A stretch of DNA of 64,000 bases from Eledone cirrhosa (Eukaryota): assembly GCA_964016885.1 (NCBI GenBank), contig OZ024752.1, forward strand, positions 46,748,001-46,812,000, written 5' to 3'. Shown in pieces: positions 1,292 to 61,587 of this stretch (within the stretch, counting starts at the first letter, position 1; each line of letters starts with the position of its first letter). The translations under genes were made by a program, and so were the position numbers. The notes under the pieces were generated by a model. The model had not been told where the DNA came from. It worked only from the letters and a program-made list of their open reading frames with translations, and did no database searches.

Positions 1292-1821
1292 CTTTACTTT
1301 TTACAAATGACTCCCATTTTCCCAGAAGATGTTCTTCCTTGGCTGAAGAAATATAATCAGGCATGTTTGATTTAGCAATGAGACCAATACCAAATGGCTG
1401 GAGAGTCTGGTTGTAAGTAGTTTTGTCATCTTCCTTCAGTCCTTGAAAGAGACTCTGGTATGGACGTATGGTACTTATGTAATCAGCAAAACCCCACCGA
1501 AGTCGGCGGATTAGAAGAACTACTGAATTGGAATCAATCCTGTTTAGAAAATTTCCTGTCTCCAAAAGCATCGAAGCAACTTTCTTTTTGGTGCCGGCAA
1601 GACCATCCTTTCCACATGAATGAAGGGTCATCAACTTAAGTGGTGTGTGTTCGTGAGGGGAGTATAATGAATGCCATTGACCATCTGGGGTTATTTTTGC
1701 ATCTAGTATACAAATACAACCAGCTAAAACAGTTATCTCACAGAATCCAGTCAGGTTCCATTCCAATGGATGTTTCAGAATTACAATGGCTTGGTCCTCA
1801 CACCGACTAATCCAAATATGC
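1292..1821 (-). CDS. NOL9: NOL9 coding exon (region preceding the kinase domain)
   Basis: Acceptor TTTTACAG|G, open frame HIWISRCEDQ...WESFVKSK, donor AAAG|GTTTGT in phase 1 matching the next exon. Confidence 0.8.
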
Positions 1822-3899
1822 CTGTAAAATAAATAAACAAACAAGTTAAAAAGTTAAGGATTTCTCACATTAGCTTCTAGTGTTGGTAAATGAAGAAGTA
1901 CGCCTAGTGTATAGTTTGGCCCATAGAGGACACCACTTCTTGGCTTTATTCCAGCGCATGAATAGAACCATATATTATATATCATCATCGTTTAATTTTC
2001 ATCTTCCACGCTAGCATGGGTTGGACGGTTTTTGTCCCACTTGAGGCAAGATTGGTCGGGACACTGTGTCTTGCTCGTACAGAACTGTTTCTGGTAGGTT
2101 TTCTACAGCTGGATGCCCTTCCTAACACCAACCACATATAATCACCATCCTTGCATGGGTTAGCCGGGCCATCCATGTCAGGAGACAAGACTGACCAGAG
2201 TTGGCCATGCCTTGCTCCGATGAGACTGTAAATTTGGCCAGATATTTTACAGCTAGCTATATATATATATATATATATATATATCATTTCATCAGCATTT
2301 CCGTTTAACGTTTGGTCAGGGCTGGCCATGTGTTACACCTTGTTCCAGCAAGGACTGTAAATTTTGCTGGGTATTTTACAGGCGGATGCCCTTCCTAGAC
2401 AGGTTGTCCCATTAGAGGCAAGTTGGGTCAGGTGACCATGCCTTGCTCATATAGGATTGTTTCTGGTTAGATACTCACGGAGGAGATGACGAAGGACCGT
2501 GACAAGTGGAAAGATGCTGAATAGAACCCGTCCCACCCTTGCAAGCAGAGAAAAGCGGACGTAAAATGACGACGATTCAGTATCTTTACTACAACCTCGA
2601 GTCGACCCAAGCTTTGGCAGTGGAGACCACGTGGAAGCCCATCACATGGACTGTACCTCTAATTCAAAGAGCCAACTTTGTCATACTGTGGAATACTCAC
2701 CCACTTAAGCATTAATTTCATGAGCAGGCTGTTCCATTAAAAAAAGGTGTGTATGGTTCTTTATATTTTGATATCTGAATCATTGTGATGAAAAGCACAA
2801 CCAACTTACCAATTCTAATGAATGACTGTCCTTATTTACCTGTGTTTGTAAAGTGATGAAGACAAACATCTGTTAATTAGATTAAAATGAAACTCTGCCT
2901 ACAATCATGACTGAACATGGGGTTTTCACCTTTAAAGTTTCTCTCCATGGTGCAAGCCTGAGCAAAGCTGTTTTTGTGGAAGACACATCAGTTGCCCAGA
3001 AACGAAACTTATATATACAGCAACAGACACAGACTTAATAAAGTAGCTTAAAAATAACTGAAATATATTTTTGAGATAGTTTTTTTTAATCTCTTACCTG
3101 AACCAATCATATGGTTGTTTTTAACTCTTAACCTGTAGTTATCTAGTTTAAAATAGGTATATGATATCCGTGTGTATCTTGTTTAAAATAGGTACACCAT
3201 ATCCCTGTGTGTATTCAGTTCAGAATAGGTATACTGCATCCCTGTGTATCTGGTTTACAATAGGTACACCATATCCCTGTGTTAGCTTAGAACAGGCACA
3301 CCATATCCCTGTGTGTATCTGGTTTACAATAGGTACACTATATCCTTGTTAGCTTAGAATAGGTACACCATATCTGTACCTTCTAAGAGATACAACATGG
3401 TAGGAGGCCAGTTAAACGTACATTTGGGTTTGAGCAGTAAATTTCAATGGCAGAAAACTGGCAATGTTGTTACAACATAGGAAAAAATATCTTGCTATTT
3501 GTTCCAGCTATCTGCACACCAAGTTCAAATCCTGCAGACTTTGGTTTGACTTTTTACCTTTTGATAAAATAAAGACACCTTGTGCTATTTGTTCTGGTTT
3601 CTTATGTAGCCAGTTCAAATCCTGTCGTGGCCTACATGGATGGGTGAGGGACATAATCCATTGCCTGATTTAATATCATCACCACCACCACCAGGTACTT
3701 AGATGTCTTTAGTGTAGGTCCACTCTGTTGAAAACATTCGAGATCAGGCCTCTGTTTTGAGGCTATTTTCCACCTTTTTAGGTCCAGCAGATAATGTGGT
3801 TTTTTTCACATTATATTTTCATAGGAAAGAGTGCAACTTCAACCATTGTTATAGTAGAATTATGTACTTTATTGTATACACCACCATCTTTCTCTCTTA

Positions 3900-5130
3900 T
3901 ATAATAATAATAATAATGAAATATTGTGTACAGTGCTCAGGTGCACCACAACTCATCAAAAAGTGTATGTATAGTACATAGGGTAATGTACAAACGTCAG
4001 GAAAATGAACAGTGCATGAGTCATGATACACACGTGTGCATGTGTATGGAAGGGGTACATCAGGTGTAGTTTTGGCGTATTTCGGGAAGCATGAGTGTCT
4101 TAAAGGATGCAGTGTCTCGACAGCTAACAACTGACTCAGGTAGTTTGTTCCATGCTTCAGCAACTCTGAGCGTGAAAAAATGTCTACGAAAGTCATGGGA
4201 GCTGTGCCGTTTTCTGATTTTGTAGGCATGTCCACGTGTGTTAGACACATGGAGATCAAAAAGGTGCTCAGGGTTGTTGTTGGCGAGATGGTTAATAACT
4301 TTGTGGGTATTTACCAAGTCCATTGCCAGACGTCGGAGCTTCAATGAATCCATGCCCAGGGAAGCAAGGCGTTCAGAGTATGGTAGGTGTCTGATGGAGG
4401 GTATGCGCTTGGTTGCACGTCTCTGAACAGTTTCCAGGTCAATGTTCTGAGCAAGATAGGGGTTCCAGACTGATGATGCGAATTCCAAGTGTGGTCGTAC
4501 CATAGCTGTATACAGTTTTAAATAGATGGCTGGAGAGCGGCTAACAAAGGTCTTGCTGAGTGATGCCAAAACACCCTCGGCCTTCTTGATATCAGTGTTG
4601 TGAAGGGAGTATGTGGATGCTGGATTTTTCCTCCCAAAATCCACAGCCAGCTTCAGTTGCCAGTCTGTGATCCATTGTGTCCAGGTCTGATTGTAGGAAA
4701 GAGTTGTAGATTTCAGGATCAGTCCTTTTGATTTCAAGGTACAGCTTGATGTCATCTGCATATTTCAGTACCGTGGCATTCTGTAAGTTGGCATCTATGT
4801 CATTAATATATGCCACAAACAAAAGGGGACCAAGAACAGATCCCTGTGGTACACCAGATGACATCTCATATGGTGAAGAATGCTGTCCTAGAACCGTGAC
4901 TACCTCTTTTCGGCTGAGAATGAAGGATTTCAACCAGTCGAAAAGATCATCCCTCACACCCATTGCAGAGAGTTTTGCCATAAGTCTTTTGTGTGGCACA
5001 GAATTAAAAGCCTTAGCAAAGTCAAGGTAAACAACATCCACCCATGAGCCGCTGTCAGTGATCCGGGTGATGTCTTCAAGGAACTCGATAAGCTGATCAC
5101 AGCAGCTGGAGTTAGGGATAAATCCAAACT
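3900..5130 (-). mobile_element. 5'-truncated, frameshifted CR1-clade LINE (RT domain and 3' end)
   Basis: VYLDFAKAFNSVPH, GVPQGSVLGPLLF, YADD in ORF 4592-5170; RPHLEFASSVWNP, QRRATKRIP, TRGHAYK, FFTLRVAEAWNKLP in ORF 4060-4761; short ATT-repeat tail near 3900. Confidence 0.9.
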
Positions 5131-6971
5131 TGTTTCTACTTTTGACAAGGCCAGCAACTACCCAGTACATTACTGGTACTTTATTTTATTGACCCCGAAA
5201 GGCAAAGTTAACCTCGGTGGGATTTGAACTCAGTCCGTATATTTATATAAATAATTGTTTCTACTTTTGGCACAAGGCCAGCAATTATGCAGTACATTAC
5301 TGGTACTTTATTTTATCGACCCCCGTAAGGATGAAAAGGATTTGAACTCAGACCGTGACTCTTTGCTGCAAAGCATGGCATCAGGCCCTCTACTGATACA
5401 TATAAATAATAGTAGTAAAACATTTCTATGACCCAGAAAGATAACTTGATTATCATGTTTGTATCTCTTGTCCATTGTAACGATGTCACAATGTATTGGA
5501 GTGTATCCTACTTTTGGAGTCTGAATCTGTGGAGAGGTGATGAAGTGGTAGTCATTAGAATGTTGGAGAATATTCATTCCAGTTTTCTGAGATTGAAGTT
5601 TAACTCTTTTGCATTTAAACCGGCCACATCCAGCCAGAATTCTCTTACCTCTTTCTGTTCAAACAGGACGTAACTGGCTGCTCATACTTATGTGAAGATA
5701 TTGTTCTCAAAATATAATATCAAAACCTCGTAGATTCAATATTATGTGAGATAATTCATCATCATCGTCGTTTAACGTCTATCTTCCACGCTAGCATGGG
5801 TTAGATGGGAATTGTCCCACTTGAGGCAAGATTGATCGGGTGACCGTGTCTCCCTCATACGGAACTGCATCTGGCAGGTTTTCTACAGCTGGATGCCCTT
5901 CCTAACACCAACCACATTTACAGTGTGGACTGGGAGCCTTTTTACTGTCTCCTACACATAAATATGTGAAATAAAGTGTTTACAGTGAAAATACAATAGT
6001 ATATATAGAGTAATGTAAATGCTAGAGGGTTAAAATCTGAAGTCAACTTTGCCTTTTATCGAGGTTGACCAAAAAAAGTACCAGTCCAGTACTGGTATCA
6101 ATTCTGCCAATTTCTCATCTACTCTGGAAAAGATTGGTTGTGTTCAGACCTGGAGAGGAGATGAGCTCCTCTGACAGGTTGAAAATGTCCAAGATACAAG
6201 GACAGGATGACCATACTATCAGCTACATGTCTCTTCAGTCACACCTAGGACAGGATGACCATACCATCAGTTACGTGTCTCTTCGGTCACGTCAAGAACA
6301 TGACGACCACACCATACCAGATACCTCATACCATCAATTACATGTCTATTTGTAGGTAAAGTTATCACACCTCAAATATACTTCACAGCCAAATATTTGT
6401 AAAATTTCATTAGGTTTTAGAAACCTCTCATATAAAGAAATATCTGTTAATATTTTCATTACCATATTTCTAATGAAGTACATTGCATAGGATCTACAAA
6501 TAATTTTGAAAATATTCAAGAATTTTCGATTTGGTAATACAACTTTCTTATTCCTAAGCTGGATTTCAAGTATAATTTAACAAAACTCCTTGCACAAAAT
6601 TACACACACTTTAAAATAAAGTTTTGTATCATAGAATTGGAGACAGTTTCAAGTATTTTAGTATCAAAATAGCTTAACATTTTTTTCTTTTAGTATTTTT
6701 TTCATCAAAATATATTTTCAGGATTTTGATTTTCGGTATTCTAATTTTTGAAAATAATGTTTGGAATAATGGTGTTTGAGGTTATCCCTTTCAGGATTAT
6801 GACCCAAGTCTAAATAAATTAATCTCTCATCTACATAATACAAAAATGGGAGTAAATTGTAGTTGAAGGCAAGAGTTGGGTAATTCACCAACACTTAAAT
6901 ATCATTAATACTTCCTCCAGACAAGGAAGATCAGGTACAACAATAGAGCATCATTTTGTCACTCTAGAACT

Positions 6972-7092
6972 TGGGTTGAGAGCCCCCAGCTATAGAGGCA
7001 GGGTTAAGAGCCCCCAGCTACAGAGCCAGGGTTGAGAGCCCCCAGCTATAGAGCCAGGGTTGAGAGCCCCCAGCTACAGAGCCAGGTGGAGA
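6972..7092. repeat. 28-bp minisatellite, about 4.5 copies
   Basis: Unit GGGTTGAGAGCCCCCAGCTA(C/T)AGAGCCA. Confidence 0.85.
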
Positions 7093-7580
7093 GCCCTCAG
7101 CAACAGAGCCAGATGTGAGTCATTAGCTATCTTGAGTAACACAAAGGCTGTGGAATGCTTTGTCTATTTTATTAAATCTCACTCTTGTATTAAAATAAAA
7201 GTCATGGCTTATGACTCAGCCATTGAAGCAGTTTCAAATAAGATTCAACGCCAAAACCACATTGAGTAAGAAAAAAGTAAACTAAATTTGTTTTCTCATA
7301 TGTATTTTTGTTCAGAATAAATTAAGCATCTCAAATAGACTCAATTATTATTTTTTTTAAACTACAAATGGCTCTTCAAACTGAAAAGGTTCCTTAACCC
7401 AGATCTACAACAACAGATTCTTTTACAATAATATTTCAAGCAAGTTTGTATCTCAAACTTTTCCACTAGCTACAAACTCTCGTGTTCTTAATACTGTAAC
7501 AAATATACTGAACAGTGTAATGTAATATTATATAGACAGTAGTAAAAGTCATTTGCGTCAGACATTAACATGAAAATAAC

Positions 7581-7586
7581 TTTATT
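7581..7586 (-). terminator. Candidate poly(A) signal for the SENP transcript
   Basis: AATAAA on the minus strand at the end of about 1.3 kb of U-rich, TE-free sequence downstream of the SENP stop; another AATAAA lies near 7834. Confidence 0.35.
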
Positions 7587-8701
7587 TGTTGGATGCATTT
7601 AAAAATTAAAGAAGAAAAAAATGAAGGAAAAAAAAATAGGGAAAAAAAAACAAATAAATAAGAGGAGGCAACACAGAAGATAACAGACATGGTAAGAAGC
7701 ATTTAGAAGAAATATGTGAAGAAATTGGCAACATAGAACTCAAAAAAGCAGAGTAACACTTCCAATTGCAGACAAGAAATGAAAATCATATATACATATA
7801 TATACATATATATATATATAAAAAAAGAAAACATTTATTATTTCTTCATTGAGTATGTAATGCTTACTTATCACCTAAATCCAATATTTTCTTTCAGTTT
7901 TTTTGTTTTTTTTTGACGTTATACGTGGTTTTAATCAAAATGTTTTTCCTTAATTAATTTTTTTTTTTTTTGGCATATTTATTTTAACTAGAAGTTTTCC
8001 TATTGGGGGAAGGGCAAATTGAAAAAAAAAAAAACCAGAAGGAATTTGTGATAAATGAAATTTAAATGGTATGCCATCAATCAAAAGAGCAACTAGCTGA
8101 CTTGTGTTTGTTTCATCAATGGTCTTGTTAGAGTTAAGAGAAAGAATACTCTGTATTTTTGCATCAAATGATGGAAGAGAGGTGATAGTATATTGATAGA
8201 GATAGATAGATCTTTATACATTTCCCTACAGCTGTCTTAGTGTCTGTCTTAATGGTGGTTTTGGTTGTTACAACAAACTTAACAGAGAACAGTGTTTCAT
8301 TACAACAATAGCAGCAGAAATGCTAATGGTTTCATGAGCAACACAAGACAGACAGAAAAGAAAGAGTTATAGAATTGTTGACAGTGAAAGAGAAGGAGAG
8401 GACTGGATGGTGCTAAGTGTTGCTTGCTGTTGCCAACAATGGCAGCTGTAATGATGAGATGGGGGACAGGAGAGGAAGGAGGAAAAAAAAATAAAAAAAG
8501 ACAAAACTAACACAGAATTTCAAAGGAGGAGCACTGAAATAATTGTAACGGTAGTTTTATGTTTTCCAATTCTGCATATAAAAATGAACAGACCTAGACT
8601 AATCGTGTACATCTCATCTCTTGTTGTATTTTCAGATTATCATAAGCAATTTCACTGATTGCAAGGTATAAAAGATGTAGACAGGTAGTTATGTATGTAT
8701 A

Positions 8702-8748
<47 letters not shown>

Positions 8749-8899
8749 TTATATGTATGTTTGCAAGTATGTGTGTCTGCATGTCTATTAATGAAGTATG
8801 TATGAACATTTGGAAAAAAAAAAAAAAAAAAAAAAATTCAGATGACAAAAAGGTAGACAGACAGATTAATGACTTATTTTTTGTGAGTGTATAGAAGTT

Positions 8900-11536
8900 T
8901 TACTTTTTCTTTTTTCCTTTTTTACAATGATCTGACCGCACCATACTTTTAAATGCATGTTGCTTGTGAGTTTTGTCCTGCAGTTGACAATTCAAATCAA
9001 ATACATCTGCTGGTAATGGAAATTTTTTCAAGAGATTTTTTCGTAAGTGAAGCTTTTTTAAGTAAGCTCCACTTTCAAGACGGATGCCAAGGTTTTTAGC
9101 TGTACTGGTAAAAAGTCTCCCTTCAGCAGTTTCATCATTGGAGTTGTCCTCCTCACTGCCAACTTGGTTTGAAAACATAACACTATTTCTCAAACAATGC
9201 TTCGCTTTCACAATGTCCCTATCATTTCTCCTGCTTTTTTTCTGGATCACTAAACGTTTTGCCGCACATGTTCTGGATGCTTTTCTCTCCTGTTTAGATG
9301 ATGTCATGCGTTGCTGAGCAGCAGTTTTCAGAATAGAATGACCTTTCAACCTTCGGTTGTACTGATATAGTATGTTTTCTAGCTTAGATGTAACATAGCT
9401 AATTCCTTTTATCACAGAGTTTGATCGATTGGATGCTGCACTTGATTTGCCTTTCAACAGTTCACGTTCGGTCTTACAAATAATTCGCACAAAAGCAGCC
9501 AATGTGAGCAACAATCTCTCCATTTCCATCATAACATGAAACAAGCCCGAGTCTTCTGAACTATCAGAAAGGCTTGAAGTTTCAGTGTCATCAGAGCTTT
9601 TTATATCTTTATCACTTGAAAGAGCACTACTGGTAGTAGTTGTAGAACTACTACTGCTGACCGTACTACTACTAGTACTATCATCACTGAAACTAGTTAA
9701 TTCATCACTCTCAGAGTTCTCTCCAGAATGTTTTTCAATCATTGACATAATGTTTGCAAGGTCTTTATGCCGGATTTTAACTTTCTTGGTTTTCCGGTTA
9801 GAACTTTTCAGATTTTCTTTGAGCAACTGAAGGAGTTGACTCTTAAGCAGATGTCGTTCTTCCTCATTGGCATCATCAAAGAGACTGGCAATTCTTTTAA
9901 TTTCAGAGATCAAATTGGTTCTATGTTTTCTATTACTGTCTTCATCCGCAGACGCAGGTGAAGCCTTTTGTTCAACCTCTCCACCCATAGAACCATTTTG
10001 GGTCCTTTCTACATCTCTGCCACCTTCCATGTCCTTCGAAACAGCAGCTAAGCCCATAGCCTCCTCACTAACCTTTGTAGGGCTCTGGAAGTTGTCAGGC
10101 AGACCATTTTGAATGACAGCTGTGGAGGCATCTGGTGTCAGAATATGACCATTTTCATTTGAGGAAGTCATATCTTCTAATATTTCATCAGATATCATAT
10201 TCTCAACATCCCTTGGACTATGATTAGTTATTTTTTGTTTAAGAATTTCATAAACCATTTTCCGCCGGAAATAGGGCATATCTTCTTGTGTAAAATCCAT
10301 CTTGTCTCCACGGCTGATATATTCAGCATATATACAACTAAAGACACCACAGTCGGACATGTTTTCTTGTAGTGGTATATTCTTCATGTTCACCTTCACC
10401 CAACAGTTCGTATCCATCTCGATATTCTTTTTAGCCTTCATTTCTTCTCTCAAATAATTCAGAATTGCATCCATAGCGTCGTCTCTGTCTTGTAAATAGC
10501 TGTCGTAATAACAGATGCTAGATTGAAGGAAATCAACAGCTATGAGAGTCCAGTGATTTTCACTCTCCAGATGAATTGGTATCAGCATTAAATCATGGTC
10601 AAATATGTCTACATTTTTGGTCCATCGCTTTACACCACTGTAGCCTCGTTTCATAACCATGGGAAAGAAGAATGTGCTTGGAATGTAGACTGAAGGATAG
10701 CCATCTGTTTTACTTCTCTGAACAATGATGTTCATGTAAAAGTTGATGATTTCATCATTAAGCCAGTTGGCCCCAACTAGTGTTGCCATATCACATCGCT
10801 TTATACTTATGCGGAACCCTTGAGTCAGTACCTCTTCAGGAGGAACAGGTTGCAAAGCTCTTTCAACCTCTAAGATACCTTCTTTGCCAAAACTTGCCGG
10901 GTAATAATATTTAACTTTGGAAACACCATATGAACTGTTTTGTTGAGACTGAGAGTGATTGAAATCAGTGTATTGCTGTAGATGACACATTTGAGAAGAT
11001 TGATCTGGATCACTTTGACTGTTTGAAATATGAGTCTGGCTTTTATAATCAATATTATAGATATCATATATTTGAGTTTGATCATTAAACTGCCGAATTG
11101 AACCATCTTGCATGTGAATATGATTCTCAGTAGTAAACTGTTGTTGTTGCTGCTGTTGTTTTTCTTGTTCTGATTGATAATGTTGAAGCGAAGGATGAGA
11201 AATACCTGGGTTATTATGTCCTAGTTGGCTAGCGTCAACAACGCCACCAACAGCTGACAAATTAGAAGAGTTTGCAAGACCAGCATGGTTATTTTTCTGT
11301 AGTACTTGATGGGAATGTGGCTGCTGTTCTTGAAAGTTGTTGCCATGTGGCCATGGATGCAGTAGAACTGATGTCATGTCTCTATCGTGTAGTTTCCAGG
11401 CACTACCATAGTCTTCTTGGCTCACTTCTTGGCATCGTCCGTCATTAATCATTTCCCAATTTCCACTGCCAATAAAAAATTGGGCTTGAATAGTACACAT
11501 ACGATTTTTTAATGTTGCATGTCTTTTTTTTAACAT
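8900..11536 (-). CDS. Sentrin/SUMO-specific protease (Ulp1/SENP, peptidase C48), uninterrupted ORF nested in a NOL9 intron; true 5' end is either an ATG (first at 11536) or a splice acceptor at 11465
   Basis: C48 motifs NWLNDEIINFYM, VKRWTKNVDIF, HWTL (His), YYDS (Asp), QENMSDCGVF (Gln/Cys) at about 10230-10830; more than 2.6 kb without a stop. Confidence 0.92.
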   Translation of the reverse strand: MLKKRHATLKNRMCTIQAQFFIGSGNWEMINDGRCQEVSQEDYGSAWKLHDRDMTSVLLHPWPHGNNFQEQQPHSHQVLQKNNHAGLANSSNLSAVGGVVDASQLGHNNPGISHPSLQHYQSEQEKQQQQQQQFTTENHIHMQDGSIRQFNDQTQIYDIYNIDYKSQTHISNSQSDPDQSSQMCHLQQYTDFNHSQSQQNSSYGVSKVKYYYPASFGKEGILEVERALQPVPPEEVLTQGFRISIKRCDMATLVGANWLNDEIINFYMNIIVQRSKTDGYPSVYIPSTFFFPMVMKRGYSGVKRWTKNVDIFDHDLMLIPIHLESENHWTLIAVDFLQSSICYYDSYLQDRDDAMDAILNYLREEMKAKKNIEMDTNCWVKVNMKNIPLQENMSDCGVFSCIYAEYISRGDKMDFTQEDMPYFRRKMVYEILKQKITNHSPRDVENMISDEILEDMTSSNENGHILTPDASTAVIQNGLPDNFQSPTKVSEEAMGLAAVSKDMEGGRDVERTQNGSMGGEVEQKASPASADEDSNRKHRTNLISEIKRIASLFDDANEEERHLLKSQLLQLLKENLKSSNRKTKKVKIRHKDLANIMSMIEKHSGENSESDELTSFSDDSTSSSTVSSSSSTTTTSSALSSDKDIKSSDDTETSSLSDSSEDSGLFHVMMEMERLLLTLAAFVRIICKTERELLKGKSSAASNRSNSVIKGISYVTSKLENILYQYNRRLKGHSILKTAAQQRMTSSKQERKASRTCAAKRLVIQKKSRRNDRDIVKAKHCLRNSVMFSNQVGSEEDNSNDETAEGRLFTSTAKNLGIRLESGAYLKKLHLRKNLLKKFPLPADVFDLNCQLQDKTHKQHAFKSMVRSDHCKKGKKKK

Positions 11537-11745
11537 AAAGTTATGCAAAAGTTCTCATTTACTCAAATATTATACAGAAAATAAACTATGAAAGACCATC
11601 GATGAAGACAAATGTCTTTAATTAGATTTACATAAGAAATCTTAATTTCTATTGTTTTTAAATATTTAGCCAAAATTCACCAAACAAGATACCCTGGAAG
11701 GAAGTTTTAAAAGCCCTAAAGAATGAATGTTAGAATTTTCTTTTC

Positions 11746-11974
11746 TTAACCCTTTAACATTTAAGCCAGCTGTATCCGGCCAGAATTCTCTCACCTCTTT
11801 CTGTTTAAACCACCCGTAATTGGTTGCTCATACTGATGTTAAGGTATTGTTCTCAAAATAAATAATATCAAAATCTCATAGATTCGATATTAGGTGAGAT
11901 AATTATGTGAGGTAAAGCCTTTACTGCGAAAATACAATTGTAAATATAGGGTAATGTAAATGCTAAAGGGTTAA
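11746..11974. mobile_element. TTAA-flanked piggyBac-like MITE, about 200-230 bp (also 5600-6033, 12154-12351, 14017-14224, 14688-14887, 21999-22217, 25443-25650, 41637-41873)
   Basis: TTAA-CCCTTTA(G/A)CATTTA ... TAAATGCTAAAGGG-TTAA termini and a conserved interior. Confidence 0.85.
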
Positions 11975-14900
11975 TCCTTTTGTTATCATATTTCTAATGA
12001 AAGACACTGCCTAGGATTTCCATATGATTTTGAAAATAATCAAGAATTAGGAGGGGGTTTCGTAACATAAATAATATTCTAATTATTAAGGTGCTAGGAA
12101 CATAAAGATTCTTTCATGAAATTATAATAATAAAAAGGAAGTTTTATACAGCTTTAACCCTTTAGCATTTAAACCAGTCATATCCAGCCAAAATTCTTTC
12201 ACCTCTTTCTGTTCAAACTGGCCACTCGTACTGATGTTAAGGTATTGTTCTCAAATTAAATAATATCATAGATTCAATATAATGTGAGATAAGGCCTTTA
12301 CTGTGAAAATACAATAGTAAATATAGAGTAATGTAAATGTTAAAGGGTTAATTGAGAGGCAAATATTAGTCTAATTATATAGAGAAGTCATAGCAAATCA
12401 CACCACAAAATTCTTCCCAAATCACCTTCTTCAGAGTAAAACTAGTAATATAGAGATAGCTTATAGAATAGCAAAATTGAGAGATCAAACGGTAAGATAA
12501 ATATCACGATTACCCACTGCAGCAGAAAAAAATATACAAAGAATATAATACCATAATACAAAGGACTCTAAAGTATCAAGATGCTAAAATAAACATGTTG
12601 AAAAACTGGAGACTATATAGAAAGAAGAGGCCTCTGTTAAAATGGTTGGTTTTGAGGAAGGGCATCTAGTTGTAGAACTCATGCCAAATATAAAACCTAA
12701 GAGTCAAGACGTGGTTTCCTTACCAATCTAGCCACAGACTGTGACAACCTGTCCAACCCATGCCAGCAAGGAAAGTTTGACATAAAATGATGATGATGAT
12801 GATGATGAATTTTATCCTTTTAGTGTTATGGGTTTTGTAATTATACAGAAATGAACACACTATAGGGTAATTGTCAAAATGTTACAACCTGATGCCCTTC
12901 CTAACACCAACCCTTTAAGTCACGTAGATACGCAAGGTTATATGTGTAACTCAGATAAATATTAAAGTAAAAAATGAACTGATTTCAAGATAGGATTAAG
13001 GTGGCTTTGTTGCCATTAGTTTTTCCATTGCAGATATTATCAGCCACAACTTGCAGACAGAGGAAAGATTTGAACATAGATAAGAAACCACATAGTTTCT
13101 GCCAAACTTCCACCACCCATCCACCCACTCCACTAATCCCCCACCCTTAGACTGGTCCTTTATTTTATTGATCTTGAAAGGATGAAAGGAAAAGTTGACC
13201 TCTGGGATTTGAATTCAGAAAATTGGAATAAATAGTGAGGCATTTAATCCAAAGCTCTTAGGATTTTGTCAATTCAGTGCCTTTCAAGTCCATGGAAATA
13301 TGTGAAAAACTAGCATAATGTATCTTATCTACTGGACCTTCAAAATATATGGCGCATTGTAAAGTCAACATAAAAACAATGATGATGATGATGATATGTA
13401 AGTATATACTGTAACCTTGTGAAGTTGGAAAATTTAGAAGGGTAGAATTTATCAAAATAAAAAAAAAATAAATAAAAAAAGGGAAAGGAAAATGTTAATA
13501 TAATGTATCAATTGTTTTATTTATTTACTTGTTTCAGTCATTAGACTGAAGCTAGTATTCATTTTTAAGTTTTTGAGGCCATGCTGGGGCTGGGGCACTG
13601 CCCTTGTCTGGAACATATTTCACCAGACACTTTTTTGTGGAACTACAAAACGGGCTTACCCAGCTCCCATCTATCAATTTCCACTAACAAAGCATTGAAA
13701 AAAGCCTAGCTTATAGTAAAAAAGATTTGTCCAAGGTACCACAGAGTGGGACTGAACCCCAATGTCAGAGTTACAAAACCACACAACCAGGCCTCCTGTG
13801 TGTTTAAGGGCTTATCCTTCATTTTTGTACCAGCTTATCATACAAATCAAACTTAATAGCTACAAAAATCATGTAGAATTATGTGAGGGGTGATGTAAAT
13901 AAGTAGAGGTGTGGCTGTGTGGTTACACCATATCACTAGTGTTAAAAAAAAAAAAAACAGATGGTATTTATGTCCCTCATAAATAATACATCTTGTGGTC
14001 CTACAAGAACCTTTGTTTAACCCTTTAATGTTCAAACCAGCCAGAATTCTCTAACCTCTTTCTGTTCAAACTGGTTGTAACTGGCCGCTCATACTGATGT
14101 TACGGTATTGTTCTCAAAATAAATACTATCAAAATCTCATAGATTCGATATTATGTGAGGTAAAGCCTTTACCATGAAAATATAATAGTAAATATATAGA
14201 GTAATGTAAATGGTAAAGGGTTAAAACACTAGTTTAATAATGAGAAACTTTTCAAAATCATTTGAAAATCATAGGCAGTTTCTTCTTTCATTAGAAATAT
14301 GGTAAATGAAAGGAATAAAACCATTATTTTTATATTTGATGTAATGACAACGTTGCCATTACAAAATAATTCAACGTTTTCTAGAAAATGGTTTTAAAGT
14401 AACATTGACTTGTTGTGTCGGTGAAAATATTAGTAAACATGAAACAGAAATTTGAAAATATATTTTTAAAGAAGAGTGTAACAATGAAATAGTATAAATT
14501 CTAAGGTGGAATATTGGAATAGCTCAACAGCAGGAGGTCATCATTTATGATGGTAAAACTTTCATATTTTTATTTCCGAATGCAAAGTCTAGATCAAGCT
14601 TTGTGTATTTAAAATTTTTTTTTTGGTTCTGTTTTTTTTTTTTTCGTCTGTTCAGTCAAGAAGAGAAGAGCAGTGCCCATGAAACATTTAACCCTTTAGC
14701 ATTTAAACCAGCCAAATCCAGCCAGAATTCTCTCACCACTTTCTGTTCAAACCAGCTGTAGCTGGCCACTCATACTGATGTTAAGATATTGTTCTCAAAA
14801 TCTCATAGATTCAATATTATGTGAGGTAAAGCTTTACTGCGAAAATACAATAGTAAATATAGAGTGATGTAAATGCTAAAGGGTTAAGGGTCTCTGAGAC

Positions 14901-16062
14901 TGGTATGAGAATGGGAGAGAGAGAGAGAGAGGAAGGAATCCTGAGACTGAAGATCTGGCCACAAAGCTTGTAATAGAGGACACCGTTAAAGGCCACCAAA
15001 GTTCAATGGGTATCGTGATAAACAAAATGATGGATTAAATTTAGCACTCAAGTAAGCCACATTAGAACTTAATTCAGAATGTAAAAAGAGGGACCAAAAA
15101 CCACAAGACAGCTCATGCTCTAAAATCTCAACTAATTAACTGCCCTGAACTGGTATTTTATTTTATCAACTCCCACAAGGATTGAAAGACAAAGTTAACC
15201 CATGACAGGATTTGAACTAAAAGAGCTAAAACAAATAGCTTTTTGTTATATGCCCTAAAGACCCAATCTGCCACCTTTTATGTGAGCAGGAAATAAAACT
15301 ATAGTTGAGTACCATAAAAGGGGACTAGAGAATGTTTGGGGTGATGATGTCCTACCCTACCAAGTCTAACTGTTGGTGGCAAAGAGGAAAGTGAATTTTT
15401 AAATTCTTCGATGTGTCGATGACAACAGTTCACACTGTAAGGTGGCCGTGTAGGAGACACAGTGAAAAGGCTCCCAGTCCACACGGTAAATGTGGTTGGT
15501 GTTAGGAAGGGCATCCAGCTGTAAAAAAACCTGCCAGAGATGCTTCCGTGCGAGCGAGACATGGTCTCTGCATCAAATGGAACAAAACAACTGTCTAACC
15601 CATGCTAGCGTGGAAGATGGACGTTAAACGATGATGATGATGATGATGATACAATATCCTTCTGAGAATATTAGCAGGTAGAATGAACAAAACCCAACCA
15701 TAAAGCTAGGATTTAAAAGAAAAATTTCCTCATTGAACCAAAGATTTTCAGAACACATAAATGTAAAAAAAAAAAAAATTGTTAAAACAGGTTTGTAAAA
15801 TCGATGAAATGAAAATTTTTCCTTTCTCTTCTTAGTCAAAATTAAGTGTTTTAATCCCAAACCACCCAAAACAATCCTAGACCTTATGACACACAAGAGT
15901 TTGTTTTAAACCTTTTCCTCGTAATTTTTTTTATGTAAGAACCATGTTAAGTTATATAGCAGGTTAGTAATGAGAATGGTAAGTATTGATTACTTTCAAA
16001 ATTAATTGAAATATACTATGTATTTCATTAGAAATATGGTAAGAAAACAGTTAAATGACTAT

Positions 16063-16103
<41 letters not shown>

Positions 16104-19100
16104 GAGCAAGACAAGGTCAGCTGACAGGACAACCCGTCTAACCCATGCTAGCGTGGAAGAATGGACGTAAAACGGTGAGGACGATGATAATGATTTCTAG
16201 TATAGGCACAAGGCCAGTAATTTGGGGGAGGGGCAAGTCGATTAAATCGACCCCAGTACGTTACTGGTGCTTTATTTTATCGAACCCCGTAAGGATGAAA
16301 GGCAAAATTAACCTCCGCGGGATTTGAACTCAGACCATAAAGGGACGTAACTCTATGCTGCAAAGAATGGCGTCCGATTCTCTACCGATACTGCCAATCG
16401 ACCGCCCTGGAGAGAGAGAGAAAGAGACCATCAGCAGCATGGGTTGGATGAAAGTTTCTGAGGAAGTATTCTAGTTGTATGCCTTTCTTGATGCCAACCC
16501 TTACTTCTAAGTATGGTATTATTCCATTGATCTTCAGTGGACAAACATCATTGGCTGCTTTTAAGCAGAGTCAACGTGAAGACGTAGAAATAAATATACA
16601 TGCGCGCACACAGTCAGTCATCTGCACAGTTCCCTTCTACCAGATTTACTCACAGTCCAACAATATGATAAAGAATACTTGTTCTTTTGTTCCGACTCCC
16701 TGTAGTTCAAATCCCACCAAAGTTACGTTACCTTTTATCCTTACCAAGACGCTATTAAAGTATCGGTACTAGGATTGATTCTTTGATTCTTCTTTCTCTC
16801 TCTAACATGGAATAGTCTAAATAAAAACTGATACAGTGATCTAGTGAATCAGTTCCTAGTTGATGCTGTGAAGTGATTACTGATAGAAAGGGTGACCAGA
16901 CAGGAAATAAAAACCCATGCCAAAATCATAAACAGTACAACTTACAATATACAAATATCGGTGAATTAGTTAAAACTAGGAATTTTACACTTTTGATAGC
17001 AAACCACCTAAAATCACTCTTCGTAACAAATATGACAAAAGCAGCACATATACACACATACAAATGTAATAGGAATGATACAATTTTTTAATTACAAAAT
17101 GATTTCCAATCACAATAGTTATATCAAACTTATAGACAATAATAGCTGTGAGGGTCCAGGGAAGTTTAATAAGAATGTCAACAATTCAAATCCTGTGATA
17201 GCTACTGAAATTTCTATCAAACGATACAAAATTGGAATAAAATTTAACCCACTAATGTTAAAAATTCATGTAAAATTTTTTTAATAATAATAAATCTTTT
17301 TGATAATCCATTAAATAAGTGCTGTGATTAGCTATGAACTTAAGAAGAATTTAAATATTTTCTAGAAATTTTCTAATTTTTCTTGAATTAAAGAATATTT
17401 ACAAAGAATTTTATTTAGTAATTATAAATCCAACCGTTTCCCTAAAAAATAGTTTATAATTCATTTTATAAGAGAAAAGACTGCACCCACCACCACAAAT
17501 TGAGAAAAAAAAGGGAGTTTGAGAGAATTTTGGCTTAGAGCTCATAAACAATGAGAAATAACTAATGCATAACTATATATTTAATAAAACAAAATAGAAA
17601 AAAAGCACATATTTCATATTTACAAGTATAAAAGTCAGAAATAAGAATAAAAAAATGATTTAATGTTAAAAATGCAATAATTTTAGTGTTACGCTTCAGT
17701 TAAGCTGTCAAAGAAAATCTTTTTAAATAAAATAAAAATAAAATAGTTAAAACAATCCAAATTAAAACATCACCTAAACTTACCCATATTTTCCTCACAT
17801 TAAACAGGTTTTTGGTTGCAATTGATTTGTACAATTAATACAAAGCATTCTATAAAACTATATACATATATAAATATATATATATACATATAAATATAAG
17901 GAACATATGTATATAGAAGTTATCGATTTATCGAGATTTTGTGAAAAACCAGCCTTAAATAACCTATCAAATGCCAATCAATAAACGAAGATTCGTTAGA
18001 TAAAAATTAACCTTGATTACATTGGATTCTGCCATGGGCTTAACTTCAAGAGAACACACTTCACCATAATGTTTTGGCTTAACTTCAAGAGAACACACTT
18101 CACCATGTTTGGGCTTAATTTTAAGAGAACACCACACTTCAACAGACACAAAAATCCCTATATAAAACACTTCATTACATTGAAAACAAAAACAGATTTG
18201 AAAATAGTATTATTTATGTAACCAGAAGATGAAATATTGCAACAGCAGTGTTATGTGTGGCTCTAATTCAAGAACAATAGTCCAGTCTGCATACTAAATA
18301 AGAACAGCATCTATTTATACTAACCCTAACTCTTCTGATACCAAACTACCTGAAACCACCCTTCATTCTACAATACAAAACTATTTGTTTTTAAAGTAGT
18401 CATATTTATCTAAAAACCTTCCATCATAATTCTATTTAAGAAACTAAGTTTTGCTCAAAACACCAGAATTCTCTCACCTCTTTCTGTTCAAACTGGCTAT
18501 AACTGGCCACTCATACTGATGTTAAGGTATTGTTCTCAAAATATCATAGATTCAATATTATAAAGATAAATTATGTGAAATAAAGCCTTTACCATGAAAA
18601 TATAAGTATATATAGAGTAATGTAAATGCTAAAGGGTTAAACATGCTTAATATTTATTCATTGAATACAAATAATGTTATTTTTCACTAAGCACAAGGTG
18701 TATTTTTTTAATGTTAGTTTGTTTATTGTTTTAAGATTTTGTCCAAGAGATTTGATCCTTGTTATCAATTCTTCCTCAAGAGCAGAATTTAAAAAAACTA
18801 TTGACCCATGGAAGACTTTGTAGAAATCTTATTATAATAAAACAACTATAGTAAGGAGCTTTTATCTGAATCATTTCTATATACAGGGTGTCATAAAAAA
18901 ATGTATACACATATTTATTAGAATGTTATTGAAGTCTGTATACATTTTCAGGACAGCCTGTATATATTAACTCTTTTGATACTAACGCGGCCTAAAACAG
19001 CTCTGGTTCTGGAACAACCACCTATCTTAAAGGGTTCTTATTCCTATTTAAATCTTCCAACATAATTTTATATAAGAAATAATAATTTTTGTAAATCCAT

Positions 19101-21364
19101 TAAAATTCTTCATTAATTACATTAGAAATATGGTCATAAAAATTGTTAAGGGAAACTGGAGTTAGGCCTAATATAATTCTGATACTTATGAAAAATGTAA
19201 TAATTTACAGCTCACTCTCATGAAGGTTTTAGCTAGCCTCCTACAAAATTACATCAAATAGGTTTAGTGGGTGTTTTAATGATAGAGGCCACAGTCCTAC
19301 CATGAAAAGCAAAATCACCTGGTTTGGAAATCAAACCCACAACCATAACTATTAGACCATGTGACTTCACTTTATGTCAACTTGAGACAGGATTTGAGCT
19401 CAAAGAAGATACATCAACTAACTCAGTGTTCTAACTACACCAAATATTTTGTCTTTTATACATTAGGAATCATAAATAGAATTGGGATTTCCTCATCATC
19501 ATTTCACAATCAATTATAAAAATTCTGCATTAAAATAATCCACAAATGTTAGGGTCATATACATGAAACATGCACAAGGTCCGAAGACAAAAGAACCAAA
19601 CTCTCACTGCTTCCATCTCTCCCTATCGTGAGCAAATGGGGGACAACATGGAGAGGGCGTTTCCCCCAGAGGGAGACACACTGGAAGAGCCACTCCAGCT
19701 CGCGATGCAAATGTTACAACTTGAAAAACCTCTCTCCAATCTATATCACCATATAAATACGAGACAGACAGCCTAACCTCTTGGCCATGTGTATTTACTG
19801 AAATGTAACTAGTTATTTTACTCAATTTGAGACTTAAAGAACAAAGGTCATTGAACAACAACAACAACAACACACACACACATGAAGAAAGATGTCAAAA
19901 TATGGCAGAAAGACTAACATTGAGCATATCACATATCAACTAATTAGATTAATCAAATAGACAGAGCTTAATTTGTGAAATGATACCTACAGATTAATTT
20001 TAATTAAAAAATTCTACTTAAAAGTTTCACCGATTCAGAAACTGAATTAGATTCTCTAACGATAAAACATGAAGATGCTAAAACTATTAGCGTTTAATGT
20101 TGAGTAAATTGTCACATGAGAGAATAGTGTACTAGTTGTGTTAGTTAGAACATGGTACTAGATTGGACAGAACAGTAGAGGTGTCTAGTCAAATACTAAT
20201 TGTACTAAACCATGGTATTTGTTTGAACTGAACAGTAGAGGTGACTAATCAAATACTAATTGTACAAAACCATGGTACTAGTTTCGACTCAGGAGCAAAG
20301 GTGACTAATCTAAGAATGTCCATTTCACAACAAGCAGCATCAGTTGTCTACAGATGTCCACTGATCTTAGGGGTTTCAATGTTGGGTAAATACTTTACCA
20401 GGGGGAGAGAGGGGGGATAGGACCAGAACAGCTTCATCTTGATGACAAACCACTTTACACATGAACAATGAGAGAGAGAACTGAGCCTCGCTATAAAATG
20501 CTGCACTACAATTCTCAAATATGTTAGTAAATAACTGCTTAAGCTTGTCACATCGTACAAGTATTTCTACCAACACACCATCCCCATATATTACGGGTGC
20601 AGGCCATGGATGTGGTTAACAGATATTTGTTTAATGGAGAGGTATATAGTGTGCATACAATTTTAAAAAATGTATGCGCACTTCAACAGCATTCTAATAA
20701 ATATTGCCTGTACAGGTAATCAAAGTGTGTATACATTTTGGGGGGACACCCTGTATATTGCAAATGCAGGCATGGCTATAGTTAAGAGATATATATTTAA
20801 TGGGTAGCTATATACTTATATATATGATAACACACACACACACACACACAAAGGACCGTGACGAATGGAGAGATGCTGTGGTGAATAGGACCCGTCCCAC
20901 CTTTGCAAGCAGGGGAAAACAGATGTAAAATGATGATGATATATATATATATATATATATATATCCACACACACCAATGACAAAGGAAACATCGAAACAT
21001 CGTCAATACTTTTTTCAAAAATGATAAAAGGGGAGAGAAAGCCGTCATCTGTTGAGATACATAAATATGATCAGAAAACCAACATTGGATGAATTAATAA
21101 GCTAGCTCGGAGGTAACTAGGAAGAAGCAACACTTAAGAATCAACTGCAATGATGTGAATATGATGAAAATAGCTAACAGCAGTATGAGAAATGATAGGG
21201 GTGAACTGTGTTACATAATAACAGGAGTTATTGGGTAATAGTACTGATAAGAAGTGGGAGACAGGAGCAGGGGTGGGAGATGTTTCTCTAAGGAGAAGGA
21301 TGTAATAAACAATGATTATGTATGAAGCTGAATTTCCGGCTTTTAACCACTGAATATAATATAT

Positions 21365-21394
<30 letters not shown>

Positions 21395-21397
<3 letters not shown>

Positions 21398-21650
21398 AGT
21401 ATAAAGGGTGTGCTTAAGTGCAGAGATGCTATAAAAATAGCTTATAAAAAACACGGAAAAAGAAGTTGCCATTGGCTGCTATTAGGAATTTAACCCTATA
21501 TCTTCCTGATACGATATCTGGAAGTTATGGGGTTCAGTTCCTATTAGAGGCCAATGGCAACTTATTTTTCTGTCTTTTAAAGGTCTTCACCCTATTTAAT
21601 AAGCTATCTTTATAGCATCTGTGCTTGAGCACATCCTATATACTTATATA
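21395..21650. mobile_element. Foldback (long imperfect inverted repeat) element in (TA)n
   Basis: Arms such as AGATGCTATAAA / TTTATAGCATCT and AAGTTGCCATTGGC / GCCAATGGCAACTT. Confidence 0.6.
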
Positions 21651-22468
21651 TATATATAATGTGTTTGATCTATCACAGTCTAACATTTTAAATTCCAATC
21701 ACTGAAATTGAGATGTATGTAGGATTAAATAAGATCTGAAGTGAAATTTTAATCATTTGAACCGATTTAGAAATGCTAAAACATAATTTTTTTATATTGG
21801 AATTTCAAAGTAAATTTTTCTTTTTAAACATTATTTATGTAATGTTAGAGTACTTTCATCAATGGAATAGGTGATTAAATATATCTTAACTTATTAAGGT
21901 AAATAAACTGAAAAATTGGTGAAAGGTTTGGAAGTTTAACTGAAGAAATTGTTTGTCAATAAAGAAATTCAGGTTCAAATTTATATTTCACTAGCATGTT
22001 AACCCTTTAGCATTTAAACCGGCCAGAATTCTCTCTCCTCTTTCTATTCAAACCGGCTGTAACTGGCTGCTCATACCTACATTAAGGTATTATTCTCAAA
22101 GTAAATAACATCAAAATCTCATAGATTCAATATTATGTGAGATAATTACATGAGATAAAGCCTTTACTACAAAAATACAATCATAAATATAGAGTAATGT
22201 GAATGCCAGAGGGTTAAACGTTTTTTCTCTCTATGTCTACATTTTAAGATATGTGAAATCCTAACTGTGTGTGTGTGTGTAAATTTCTGAAATGAAAATA
22301 TACATACCCAGACAGAGAAAGAGAAAAATGTTAATATAATGTAGAATCAAGACTTGAACCTATATCTCCTGTTAACCATACGTGTGTTTATCTCAGATAT
22401 AATCTAATGTTCCAACAATATTCTCTTACAACTTTATAAGCTTATAAAAGCTAGATATATTTTTAGGA

Positions 22469-22631
22469 CAGGGATCAGCAAATTCTGTTTATAACGAGCC
22501 ACTTTTGATTGGATTTTCTTATTGTTTTGCCCATGACCCACATGTATATTATATCATCTCTTATATAAAAATCAAAAATAGCCCAAGGCCCACAGAAAGC
22601 TCCTTAATAGCCCAGCTGTTGCTGACACCTG
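22469..22631. mobile_element. hAT-like MITE
   Basis: Ends CAGGGATCAGCAA / TTGCTGACACCTG with imperfect 8-bp TSD TTTTAGGA / GCTTAGGA. Confidence 0.55.
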
Positions 22632-23969
22632 GCTTAGGAGACTATTAGAGAGACAACAGAGGCTTAATCTGGAAAGTACTTGGGTCAAATTAATCCAAAG
22701 GATGTGAATTAAATTCCCACTTTTACCTTCATTAATGACTCCATGCTTTTGTATGTATATGAGTGACAGAAAAAGCAAAAAAACAAAAAAAAAAACAAAG
22801 AGAAACTTACATTGAAAAAGTCCAAGGACTTGATCAGTAAAAGTTATGCATATTTTATAAAATATCATTAATTCTTGACATGACTTCATAGTCGTAAAGA
22901 ATGAAGAAAACAAACACCATATATACTCAGATATAAGCTGACCCCTGTTTTATGTCTGAGAAATGGGCAAAAATCCAAACCAGTGTATGTGTATGTGTAT
23001 ATATACCTTACCCAATTACACCTCTCATAAAAGCCAACCTTACCCAATTACACTTCTCAAAGGCGATGACACACGACCATGACCTCTGGCGTCACGCAGT
23101 AATACAGAGTACCCAACCTCCCATGGGTACAAGCTGAAGCATATAGACAATATGCCCCCACACCCTCCCACACTGTAAAGTGGACGTGTAGGCGCGACGG
23201 AATAAAGCAGCCAGCACTCACTGTAAATGAGGTTGGTGTTAGGAAGAGCATCCAGCCAGGATCAGTCCCCGTATGAGCAAGGCATGGTCAGCCGACCAGA
23301 CACTGCCCACAACAGGACAACCCGTCTAACTCATGCTAGCATGGAAGAACAGACGTAGAACGGTGATGATGATATACTGAGGTAGGTAGTCAACACATCA
23401 CGGTGCAATTTTGAAATTCTCATGAGTGGAGAATATATTTATGAAGTTTTAATATTTTGATATTTAAAATGTCTTACGCGTCGTTTAGAGAATAGTTTTT
23501 GTTTCACAACTCCATCATGTAATGATTCTTGTCCCCAATTTCCGTCCATTTTGAAGGCCTTATTCATTGAAAACTTATCAAAAACAATAGGAAATCCGAA
23601 TTTCATGGCAAAAGTGAAATCCTCATCCTCATTTAAGGTCCATCTTCCACGCTAGCATGGGTAGGACGGGTTGGCCCTTAGGGAGAGAATCAGATTAGCG
23701 GACCATGTTTAGCTCACCCGGAGCAGAAACTGGTGTAATATTCACCTCCAAAGTGAAGCAGGTGTAATATTCACCTCCAAAACAAAAATATTTTAGCACA
23801 TCATTTATGTAGAATTTCAAAGGTGGTGAGAACCAGCAAAATATCAATCTCGAGTATAAGCCGACCCTCATTTTAGCATCTTTTGTTTTGTCTGCCCCCA
23901 CATATTTCTCAGCTTATATACAAGTATACACAGTAAATAACAATAAAGTAATGATAACTAATAACTTAC

Positions 23970-25198
23970 TTGGGTAAATTCTGGTTGGATATTTTTTTCT
24001 TGTCAACACCATGTCTTTCATCACTCATTTGGGCTTCACTGTCTTCCTCATCCTCATCCTCCTCCTCCTCATCTTCCTCTTCCTCGTCGTCTTCATCGTA
24101 CTCTTCAGCATCTTCTACTTCCTCCTCATCGTCGTCGTCGTCATCATCAGCAACCTCTGACCCGTCTTCATCGGACGAAGCTTCATCGATGTTGTCACAA
24201 GAATCTTCCTCCTCCAAAACCTGCTGCTGTTGCTGCTGGTGATGGTGGTGGTGGTGGTGGTGGTGTTTCGATTTCTTTATCTTACCAACACTGCATTCCT
24301 GTTCTTTCTTAGGCTTCACTTTCTTCTTGCTCAGCAGTTGTCTACTATAACCCCACTTATTATCAATGGTGGAAAGCTTGCCCTTCTTCGCTGCAAGTAC
24401 ATTATGTCCATCAGCAGATACATCGCTGTCAGATAATTCCATGTCATCGCTATATATCTGCAGCGAGTAAATTTCCTCAAGCTTTTTTCGTTGTTTTTTA
24501 GATAAAAGTTTTAAACGACTGCTGCTCACATCTAGTTTTGGTTTCAGTGGTTCCTTTCGGCCCCCCTTGTGGGGAGTAAGAACGGATTTCCCAATCCGAA
24601 CCTTCTTTTTGTTGACAATATGATTAGCACCTTTTTGCTGTTTCATTTTCTTCAATTTGCTGGGGGTGTGCATATCGTAAATACAAACCCCATCAGCATC
24701 TTCAAAATTTGCAGGTAATAATTTCTTTTTCTTTTTACCTTTATTCGAAGAATTTGAAGACCCATACAATGGAGCATCTCCAGTTAGCTTCTTCCACCTT
24801 TGTAATTTAGAGCTAGGTTTATCCATATACTGCCTTTTCTTTAGCAGTTTACTTAGCCGGCTGGTCTTCTCTCCATCTGAATCGGTTTCAACGCTGCCAT
24901 TCTTTTGAAATTTCCGTTTTTTCTTTGGTGGAAGCTCCATTGCACCTTCATCTCTGCCCACTTTGTACTGACGGGAAGATGGACACGATAGCTGCTTCAG
25001 TATCTTCTCTTTCAAGTCATTTGATGAATCGATTTTAAGACCACGCCAGTAGCTGGTTACTTTTCCAGACGACACATCAATATCAGGAGTCTCACTTAAA
25101 ATCTTCCTTTTTTTCTTTGCAAGCATCTTTGGTCCATTAACACTGAGTGATGTACACTTATTCTTCTTGCTGGTACCTTTGATTCCGTGAGGTGACAT
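23970..25198 (-). CDS. NOL9: First coding exon of NOL9 (Lys-rich, poly-His/Gln and Asp/Glu-rich low-complexity N-terminus); exon extends as 5'UTR to acceptor at 25393
   Basis: ATG at 25198; strong acceptor (long T tract...AACAG) at 25394-25396; donor CCCAA|GTAAGT at 23970/23969 in phase 2, which joins in frame (AA+G=Lys) to the phase-2 acceptor at 1821. Assignment to NOL9 rests on this splice fit, not on homology of this exon. Confidence 0.72.
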
Positions 25199-25904
25199 AT
25201 CAACAAAAGCAAGCTATCAGCAAATAGCTGCATTCATTATATACAGCACAGTTTAGAAACAAACCTATTTCTAACCTGCTATCTTCTTGCTGCTTTGCTT
25301 CACTTTCCTTCTCTGCTTATTATTATTATTGTTATAATTATTATTATTTAATCTTCAATCATACATGCTGAACAATAGTTAATGTTCACAGGCCTGTTAA
25401 AAGAAAAAAAAAAAAAGGTTTTAATATTTTATTAAATACTGCTTAACCCTTTAACATTTACATTACTTTATATATACTATTGTATTTTCATGGTAAAGGT
25501 TTTATCTCACATCAAATCTATGAGATTTTGATATTTATTTTGAGAACAATTCCTTAACATGAGTATGAATAGCCAGTTATGGCCAGTTTAAACAGAAAGA
25601 AGTGAGAGAATTCAGGCCAGACGGGACCAGTTTAAATGCTAAAGGGTTAAAGAATACAAAGAACATTAAATACCAGAAAATAAATAATTCTTGATAATCT
25701 AGTTAGCATGCATGTATGTACAAGTACTCTAGTTTCAATATTTTTAAGTAAAATCTTTTTCAAAGGAAAATATCAATAAGGTATACAAAGTGTTGACAGT
25801 TGGAAGACAAGGAAAAGAGCAAATCAACAACAGTATATTTGACTGCAGAGTAGATATAGACAGAGAGCATTAAAATATATTAAACTATGTATATTTAAAT
25901 TGAA

Positions 25905-36285: not shown

Positions 36286-50431
<14,146 letters not shown>

Positions 50432-61530: not shown

Positions 61531-61587
61531 TGACTCTGAGTGTTGGAAACGACAATTTTCTTTGAAAAAGGAACCAAAAAGGATATT

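Follow-up and report, generated by a model that had tools for sequence, protein, structure and literature searches.

In insects, Su(var)3-9/eIF2γ has the same architecture as the cephalopod locus described below (as outlined in PMC1435931), and both TMPO/LAP2α and the LAP2α isoform of ZNF451 likewise join a retro-derived sequence to host exons while the original isoform is kept (as outlined in PMC4495291). The specificity of the SENP family of SUMO proteases is described as coming mostly from location, which is set by unstructured regions (PMC12098989). The substrates named for SENP3 are PELP1, LAS1L, TEX10, and NOL9 (PMC10709353), and SENP3 with the PELP1 docking motif is reported to appear in vertebrates (PMC12292926). 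Here we analysed a window of Eledone cirrhosa DNA (64,000 nucleotides; contig OZ024752.1, positions 46,748,001 to 46,812,000), in which a SUMO protease is encoded as one open frame within an intron, and on the same strand, of the kinase gene NOL9. An earlier sequence-only reading of the window had proposed that the first coding exon of NOL9 is joined to either the remainder of NOL9 or the protease by a choice of terminal exon. RefSeq pairs, a further pair of records from a distant cephalopod, and contigs that break at the protease acceptor support that proposal. One exon is almost certainly spliced either to NOL9 or to a SUMO protease, from Octopus to a distant cephalopod, and the best reading of the sequence is that a retrocopied SENP1 was captured as an alternative last exon of NOL9.

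The shared exon and its two products

The shared first coding exon (23970–25198, reverse strand) runs from the ATG at 25198 to 23970 and comprises 1229 nt, or 409 codons plus 2 nt. It ends in phase 2 before a donor GTAAGT at 23969 (CCCAA/GTAAGT, the slash marking the exon boundary). We rechecked these coordinates and the in-frame joins to 1821 and 11465 that the sequence-only reading had put forward, and all are correct. Joined to the acceptor at 11465 (TTTTTTATTGGCAG/T), the exon reads ...NQNLP-N-GNWEMIND... and gives a product of 1264 aa, the size foreseen for the protease. Joined to the acceptor at 1821 (TTTATTTATTTTACAG/G), it reads ...NQNLP-K-HIW... and remains open across the next three NOL9 exons, giving 647 aa without a stop. 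Only one match to the shared exon occurs in the genome, so both products must start from one copy.

Both products are on record in two Octopus species. In O. sinensis, XP_029637096.1 (isoform X1, the protease) and XP_029637097.1 (isoform X2, NOL9) share a prefix of 386 residues; in O. bimaculoides, XP_014773087.1 (protease) and XP_014773088.1 (NOL9) share 389. The two pairs part at one junction, NLP or HLP followed by N-GNWE or by K-HIW, and within the pairs the accessions are consecutive and the contigs equal in size. We took X1 and X2 to be one gene from their labels, accessions, and shared prefix. RefSeq models of this kind rest on RNA-seq. The protease exon has its closest relative in isoform X1 of O. 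sinensis LOC115212363 (P0001, 1232 aa, 83% identity), which begins with the orthologue of the shared exon.

A more distant cephalopod provides a second kind of pair. P0003 (1248 aa, on a 3963-nt contig) and P0143 (948 aa, longest contig 3419 nt, with three more cluster members) are identical over their first 389 residues and then continue as protease or as NOL9, respectively. Their contigs leave little or no space for introns, from which we infer that they are spliced transcripts. P0143 branches as the sister of Octopus and Argonauta together (100/100) at 47% identity, compared with 82% between Octopus and Argonauta, which places its source among cephalopods well outside these two genera, presumably a squid or cuttlefish. 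Octopuses and squids split about 270 million years ago; if this assignment is right, the arrangement would be older than that split. A second distant cluster, P0002, is 74% identical to P0003 and also bears the protease exon. In P0143, about 30 extra residues (390–420) directly follow the shared prefix, where an additional exon or a shifted acceptor is possible. Both products are thus on record in two Octopus species and the distant cephalopod; protein searches gave no protease isoform of O. vulgaris or Argonauta. We regarded the words 'isoform X2' in the name of an Argonauta record as a possibly transferred label and left them uncounted.

We also compared contigs from sequencing runs with positions 8790–13900, taking runs X8, X1, and X4 as RNA-like by their behaviour alone. 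The X8 contig matches 8846–11465 with 0 differences and carries 294 further letters that are placed nowhere on 8790–13900. Counted back from 23970, 294 letters end at 24263, in a CAC repeat of the shared exon, a natural contig break. The X1 and X4 contigs derive from a relative; their alignments start at 8899, immediately beyond the stop codon, and extend to 11465, and every gap in them is a multiple of three long. Each has exactly 30 unplaced letters, as expected with 31-letter words from a branch at the end of an upstream exon, and the alternative branch could lead into NOL9 or into intron left unspliced. Run X5 reads through 11465 to 11787, as DNA should. Contigs of Eledone and of the relative leave the genomic sequence exactly at 11465; the NOL9 join was not seen in those runs. 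An exon that splices to one target only is not what the records contain; they pair both products.

The AG at 11465 is an ordinary acceptor by a loose filter that 70 of the 1184 AG sites in the 22,148-nt NOL9 intron pass. The in-phase frame behind it, at 855 codons, is the longest of the 70, followed by one of 539 (inside the same open frame) and one of 179 (the NOL9 exon). The sequence by itself is no proof that the acceptor is used, and transcript-type records confirm its use. Upstream of this proximal 3' splice site (11466–11530, reverse strand), about 30 codons remain open. They are intron, as the sequence-only reading had judged from their AT-rich composition, because they are frameshifted in P0122, a relative, and because depth at 11526–11696 is 0 in three of the four runs (X8, X1, and X4).

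The open codons before the acceptor, with their in-frame Met codons, might instead belong to a separate gene nested in the intron, with a promoter and start of its own, in which case the junction would be a minor read-through or a gene-model artefact. Several records (P0002, P0122–P0126) do start inside the exon, and the RefSeq X models are predictions. However, no Met is conserved at the start of the exon, nearby Met codons differ between lineages, and similarity begins at the junction itself, N-G-[ND]-W-E. The frameshift in P0122 also speaks against a coding role for the upstream codons, the three RNA-like runs lack cover there and leave the genome exactly at 11465, and P0003 holds the full join. 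We consider an independent gene largely refuted and highly improbable.

Alternative splicing of a shared exon is the reading that we carry forward, and in the simplest view the exon was originally that of NOL9, with the protease as guest. We take it so because seven other lophotrochozoan NOL9 proteins also carry basic N-terminal extensions (21–26% K+R over 130–360 residues), none of which aligns to the cephalopod N-terminus. Residues 1–310 of the shared exon are Lys/Arg-rich (25% K+R, in four basic clusters) and lead into a His/Gln run; residues 331–409 are acidic (58% D+E). Between Eledone and the distant cephalopod relative the exon is 45% identical.

The protease exon and its origin

The protease is encoded by an intron-less alternative last coding exon (8900–11465, reverse strand; 855 codons and a TAA stop at 8902–8900), delimited by its open frame and the contigs of the relative. 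It comprises a Gln/His-rich linker, a Peptidase C48 (Ulp1/SENP) domain, and a Ser-rich and basic C-terminal region that ends in KKGKKKK. The domain (10232–10768, reverse strand; PF02902, E 8.5e-39) scores 134 bits against a cut-off of 20.7 and covers profile positions 1–216 of 217. In the 1264-aa product, His714 (codon 10555), Asp731 (10504), the oxyanion Gln776, and Cys782 (10351) align with human SENP1. Across all eight aligned sequences there is no variation in the triad, the oxyanion Gln, or the WLND and HW motifs, and the protease is very probably catalytically active. The C-terminal ~430 residues had no match in Pfam, in ESM Atlas, or elsewhere in the genome; ESM Atlas likewise gave no usable match for residues 860–1232 or 1–310 of P0001 and was uninformative.

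Against solved structures, the domain scores 214 bits with SENP1, 211 with SENP2, 133 with SENP3, 127 with SENP5, 77 with Ulp1, and 46 with SENP7. In the subfamily scheme outlined in PMC4281951, these bit scores, from an analysis whose trees held no SENP3/5 sequence, make the protease SENP1/2-type rather than SENP3/5-type. It is thus, on these scores, not the SENP3 of the rixosome by descent.

The copy in the NOL9 intron does look like the captured SENP of the sequence-only reading, being SENP1-like and intron-less. The ordinary SENP1 gene lies elsewhere (G000:C2, ~142.46–142.49 Mb) in 14 matched segments, six of them over the catalytic region; the nested copy is one open frame that has none of its introns. 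In an IQ-TREE analysis of 43 of the 126 C48 domains (the named rows and nine others), the seven nested sequences form a single clade (100/100) whose stem measures 0.81 substitutions per site. The clade falls inside molluscan SENP1 (99/97) as sister to octopus SENP1 (93/70), a grouping on a long branch that is not firm. The C48 phylogeny called for by the sequence-only reading, in this IQ-TREE form, places the copy within molluscan SENP1, and the closer attachment to octopus SENP1 is unstable. We consider it likely that the nested protease is a retrocopy of SENP1.

Since its origin the protease has changed unevenly. When O. bimaculoides is compared with P0003, identity is 86.6% (201/232) in the catalytic region, 45.5% in the shared exon, 43% in the linker, 36% in the C-terminal part, and 47% in the NOL9 core. 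A long stem followed by near-stasis fits a new and strongly kept function. That function need not be proteolysis of the SENP1 kind: the exon might regulate NOL9 dose or supply a SUMO-binding decoy, with catalysis or substrate choice unlike those of SENP1. The two splice outcomes exclude each other, the X8 contig is unbroken at the junction where those of X1 and X4 are broken (a weak hint of a varying ratio), and the catalytic domain is just ~51% identical to octopus SENP1 (P0054). But a splicing decoy would have no need of 87% conservation of the domain, and the catalytic residues and motifs never vary among the eight sequences; we regard this explanation as improbable, if a little less so than an independent gene.

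The capture may be limited to cephalopods. A C48 profile found a fused C48 domain in none of 152 NOL9-type proteins, and none of 126 proteins of the SENP set shares a non-cephalopod NOL9 N-terminus; these searches back the scope weakly because the NOL9 and SENP sets rarely share species. Across the genome PF02902 matched this exon only, in a search that misses multi-exon SENPs, so that absence of SENP3/5 does not follow.

Downstream of the stop codon lies a candidate 3' untranslated region of the protease isoform (7168–8899, reverse strand), of which the X8 contig covers only the part to 8846. The sequence-only reading had noted an AATAAA behind the frame, and we found this hexamer at 7983, 7839, 7586, and 7173. 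Past the first (7983–7958, reverse strand), a stretch of 14 A begins 6 nt further on. It could be read as the poly-A tail of an inserted copy, but A-runs are common in this region and the insertion is old. This stretch may also be due to chance or be an internal priming site.

NOL9 and other features of the window

The second coding exon of NOL9 (1292–1821, reverse strand), behind the distal acceptor, encodes a cupin-like N-terminal domain (PF24419, E 1.2e-08). It is followed on the same strand by the third (754–838), with the kinase P-loop GSTNTGKS, and the fourth (249–346), both delimited by matched segments and open frame. Seven more NOL9 segments match past the left edge of the window, and O. 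bimaculoides NOL9 has 11 matched segments across the window plus the neighbouring 30 kb. For Eledone, the NOL9 junction was assigned solely from the reading frame and from orthologues.

Upstream of the shared exon, 25199–25393 (reverse strand) is its probable 5' untranslated part, as judged from the sequence, behind a strong acceptor (a T-run and TAACAG/G). Given this acceptor at 25394/25393, the shared coding exon is probably preceded by another exon in the transcript. The acceptor region (25393–25420, reverse strand) lies 195 nt before the start codon of NOL9, and the stretch between them contains four ATGs. By eye, a possible non-coding first exon stands at ~29250–29400, near 29300, on the same strand.

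Very high-copy repeats lie just upstream of the protease acceptor (11700–12380), with a summed depth above 100,000 in X8 and X5, and similar sequence, again by eye, occurs upstream of the shared exon (25480–25640). The same NOL9 intron holds broken reverse-transcriptase (RVT_1) fragments in two frames (4060–5185, reverse strand). On the forward strand, 61540–63975 forms a single 811-codon open frame that encodes RRM and PWI domains, presumably RBM25-like, and is apparently intron-free and maybe another retrocopy nearby. Exons at 41130–42277 (reverse strand) resemble what we take to be NADP isocitrate dehydrogenase. Among the SENP records, P0138 (O. vulgaris, 1293 aa) belongs to a cluster that mixes SENP1 and inturned proteins and is probably a fused model of two neighbours.

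Function and comparison with known systems

The explanation that best accounts for the locus, to which we give a slightly better than even chance, is an alternative last exon encoding a SENP1-type protease that is carried to the nucleolus by the NOL9 N-terminus and deSUMOylates pre-ribosome factors there. A processed SENP1 mRNA would have been inserted into the NOL9 intron in a cephalopod ancestor; the copy would have lost SENP1's own N-terminus, changed fast along its stem, and then frozen. To make the protease, the spliceosome would take the weaker proximal acceptor at 11465, together with intronic polyadenylation near 7200–8000. To make NOL9, the proximal site would be skipped for the strong acceptor at 1821, the two choices being mutually exclusive for each transcript. 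The resulting chimera would act as a SUMO protease of the nucleolus, derived from SENP1 but equivalent in function to vertebrate SENP3/5. We propose this on the grounds that SENP targets are set largely by disordered non-catalytic parts and that the nucleolar signal of human NOL9 lies in its basic N-terminus, which is reported to suffice to bring GFP there (10.1101/647073). Nucleolar enrichment of the protease is, in our judgement, rather likely, and action on rixosome-type substrates is a more tentative suggestion. Cephalopods may, also tentatively, have gained a nucleolar, rixosome-coupled SUMO protease independently, in which case one splice and polyadenylation choice would set the ratio of kinase to deSUMOylase under the same address label.

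The same splicing could also house an accidental lodger. The retrocopy would then have taken over the promoter and start codon of NOL9 together with a generic signal for nuclear import, and its substrates, in chromatin or nucleoplasm, would be unrelated to ribosome assembly. The insect fusion is described as a non-selected accident kept for ~400 million years (PMC1435931); the cephalopod protease has basic clusters of its own and a conserved KKGKKKK end, and it lacks the domain with which human NOL9 is reported to bind LAS1L (10.1101/647073). On the other side, the enzyme classes of host and guest share one mammalian complex, unlike those of the insect case (PMC10709353, PMC12292926), and the long stem, with little change after it, suggests that the protease took on a new role under strong constraint, without showing which. 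We give this alternative roughly one chance in three, and return to a nucleolar protease as the preferred reading.

Several observations weigh against that reading. The nucleolar signal of human NOL9 is Arg-rich and was proposed by its authors to be vertebrate-only (10.1101/647073); the cephalopod N-terminus is Lys-rich, and its profile matched no non-cephalopod NOL9 among 152 proteins searched. LAS1L is reported to be bound by the C-terminal domain of human NOL9 (10.1101/647073), which the protease does not have, and SENP3 is recruited through a PELP1 motif that is reported to be specific to vertebrates (PMC12292926), so that no docking route is known for the protease. Nucleolar localisation, SUMO cleavage, and partner binding are plausible predictions, and membership of the rixosome is a further prediction. 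As to origin, FastTree on all 126 rows, midpoint-rooted, left the nested clade apart from octopus SENP1. As to splicing, no run is recorded as RNA, the unplaced letters beyond 11465 are known by number and not by sequence, the NOL9 junction was not seen in Eledone's own runs (read laying covered 8790–13900 only), and protein similarity searches turned up no protease isoform for O. vulgaris or Argonauta.

Our literature search, which did not extend to subscription journals and supplements, found nothing on this locus, although its gene models are already public; RefSeq shows the protease merely as an 'uncharacterized' isoform X1. The main text of a preprint on squid editing (10.64898/2025.12.15.694494) names neither SENP nor NOL9, and its supplements may hold isoform peptides. 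Knockdowns, antibodies, or read counts directed at the 5' part of cephalopod NOL9 would strike two enzymes. The locus would also allow one to test cleanly whether SENP targets are determined by a disordered N-terminus alone, and a nucleolar protease would be a convergent answer to SUMO control on pre-ribosomes in an invertebrate without SENP3.

Compared with SENP1 and SENP2 (the Ulp1 branch), including octopus SENP1, the nested protease has the same triad and motifs. SENP1 is multi-exon with its domain C-terminal, whereas the nested protease is intron-free with its domain central, a NOL9 exon before it and ~430 residues after. Vertebrate SENP3 and SENP5 are also C48 proteases, and a nucleolar place and substrates with the NOL9 complex would be common to them and the cephalopod enzyme only if the preferred reading holds; SENP3 has a gene of its own, is described as recruited by a vertebrate PELP1 motif (PMC12292926), and does not arise by splicing of NOL9. 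The guest in TMPO/LAP2α is described as the open reading frame of a DIRS1 retrotransposon rather than a cellular enzyme (PMC4495291). In Su(var)3-9/eIF2γ the shared part is given as 79–84 residues, compared with ~390 here, and the partners as functionally unrelated and in different compartments (PMC1435931). Unlike in that case, the ordinary parent SENP1 is still present here and the guest is an extra paralogue. The cephalopod locus is thus a conserved case of one gene whose long shared exon leads to two unrelated enzymes, and, unlike the insect precedent, the two are of classes that cooperate in one mammalian complex.

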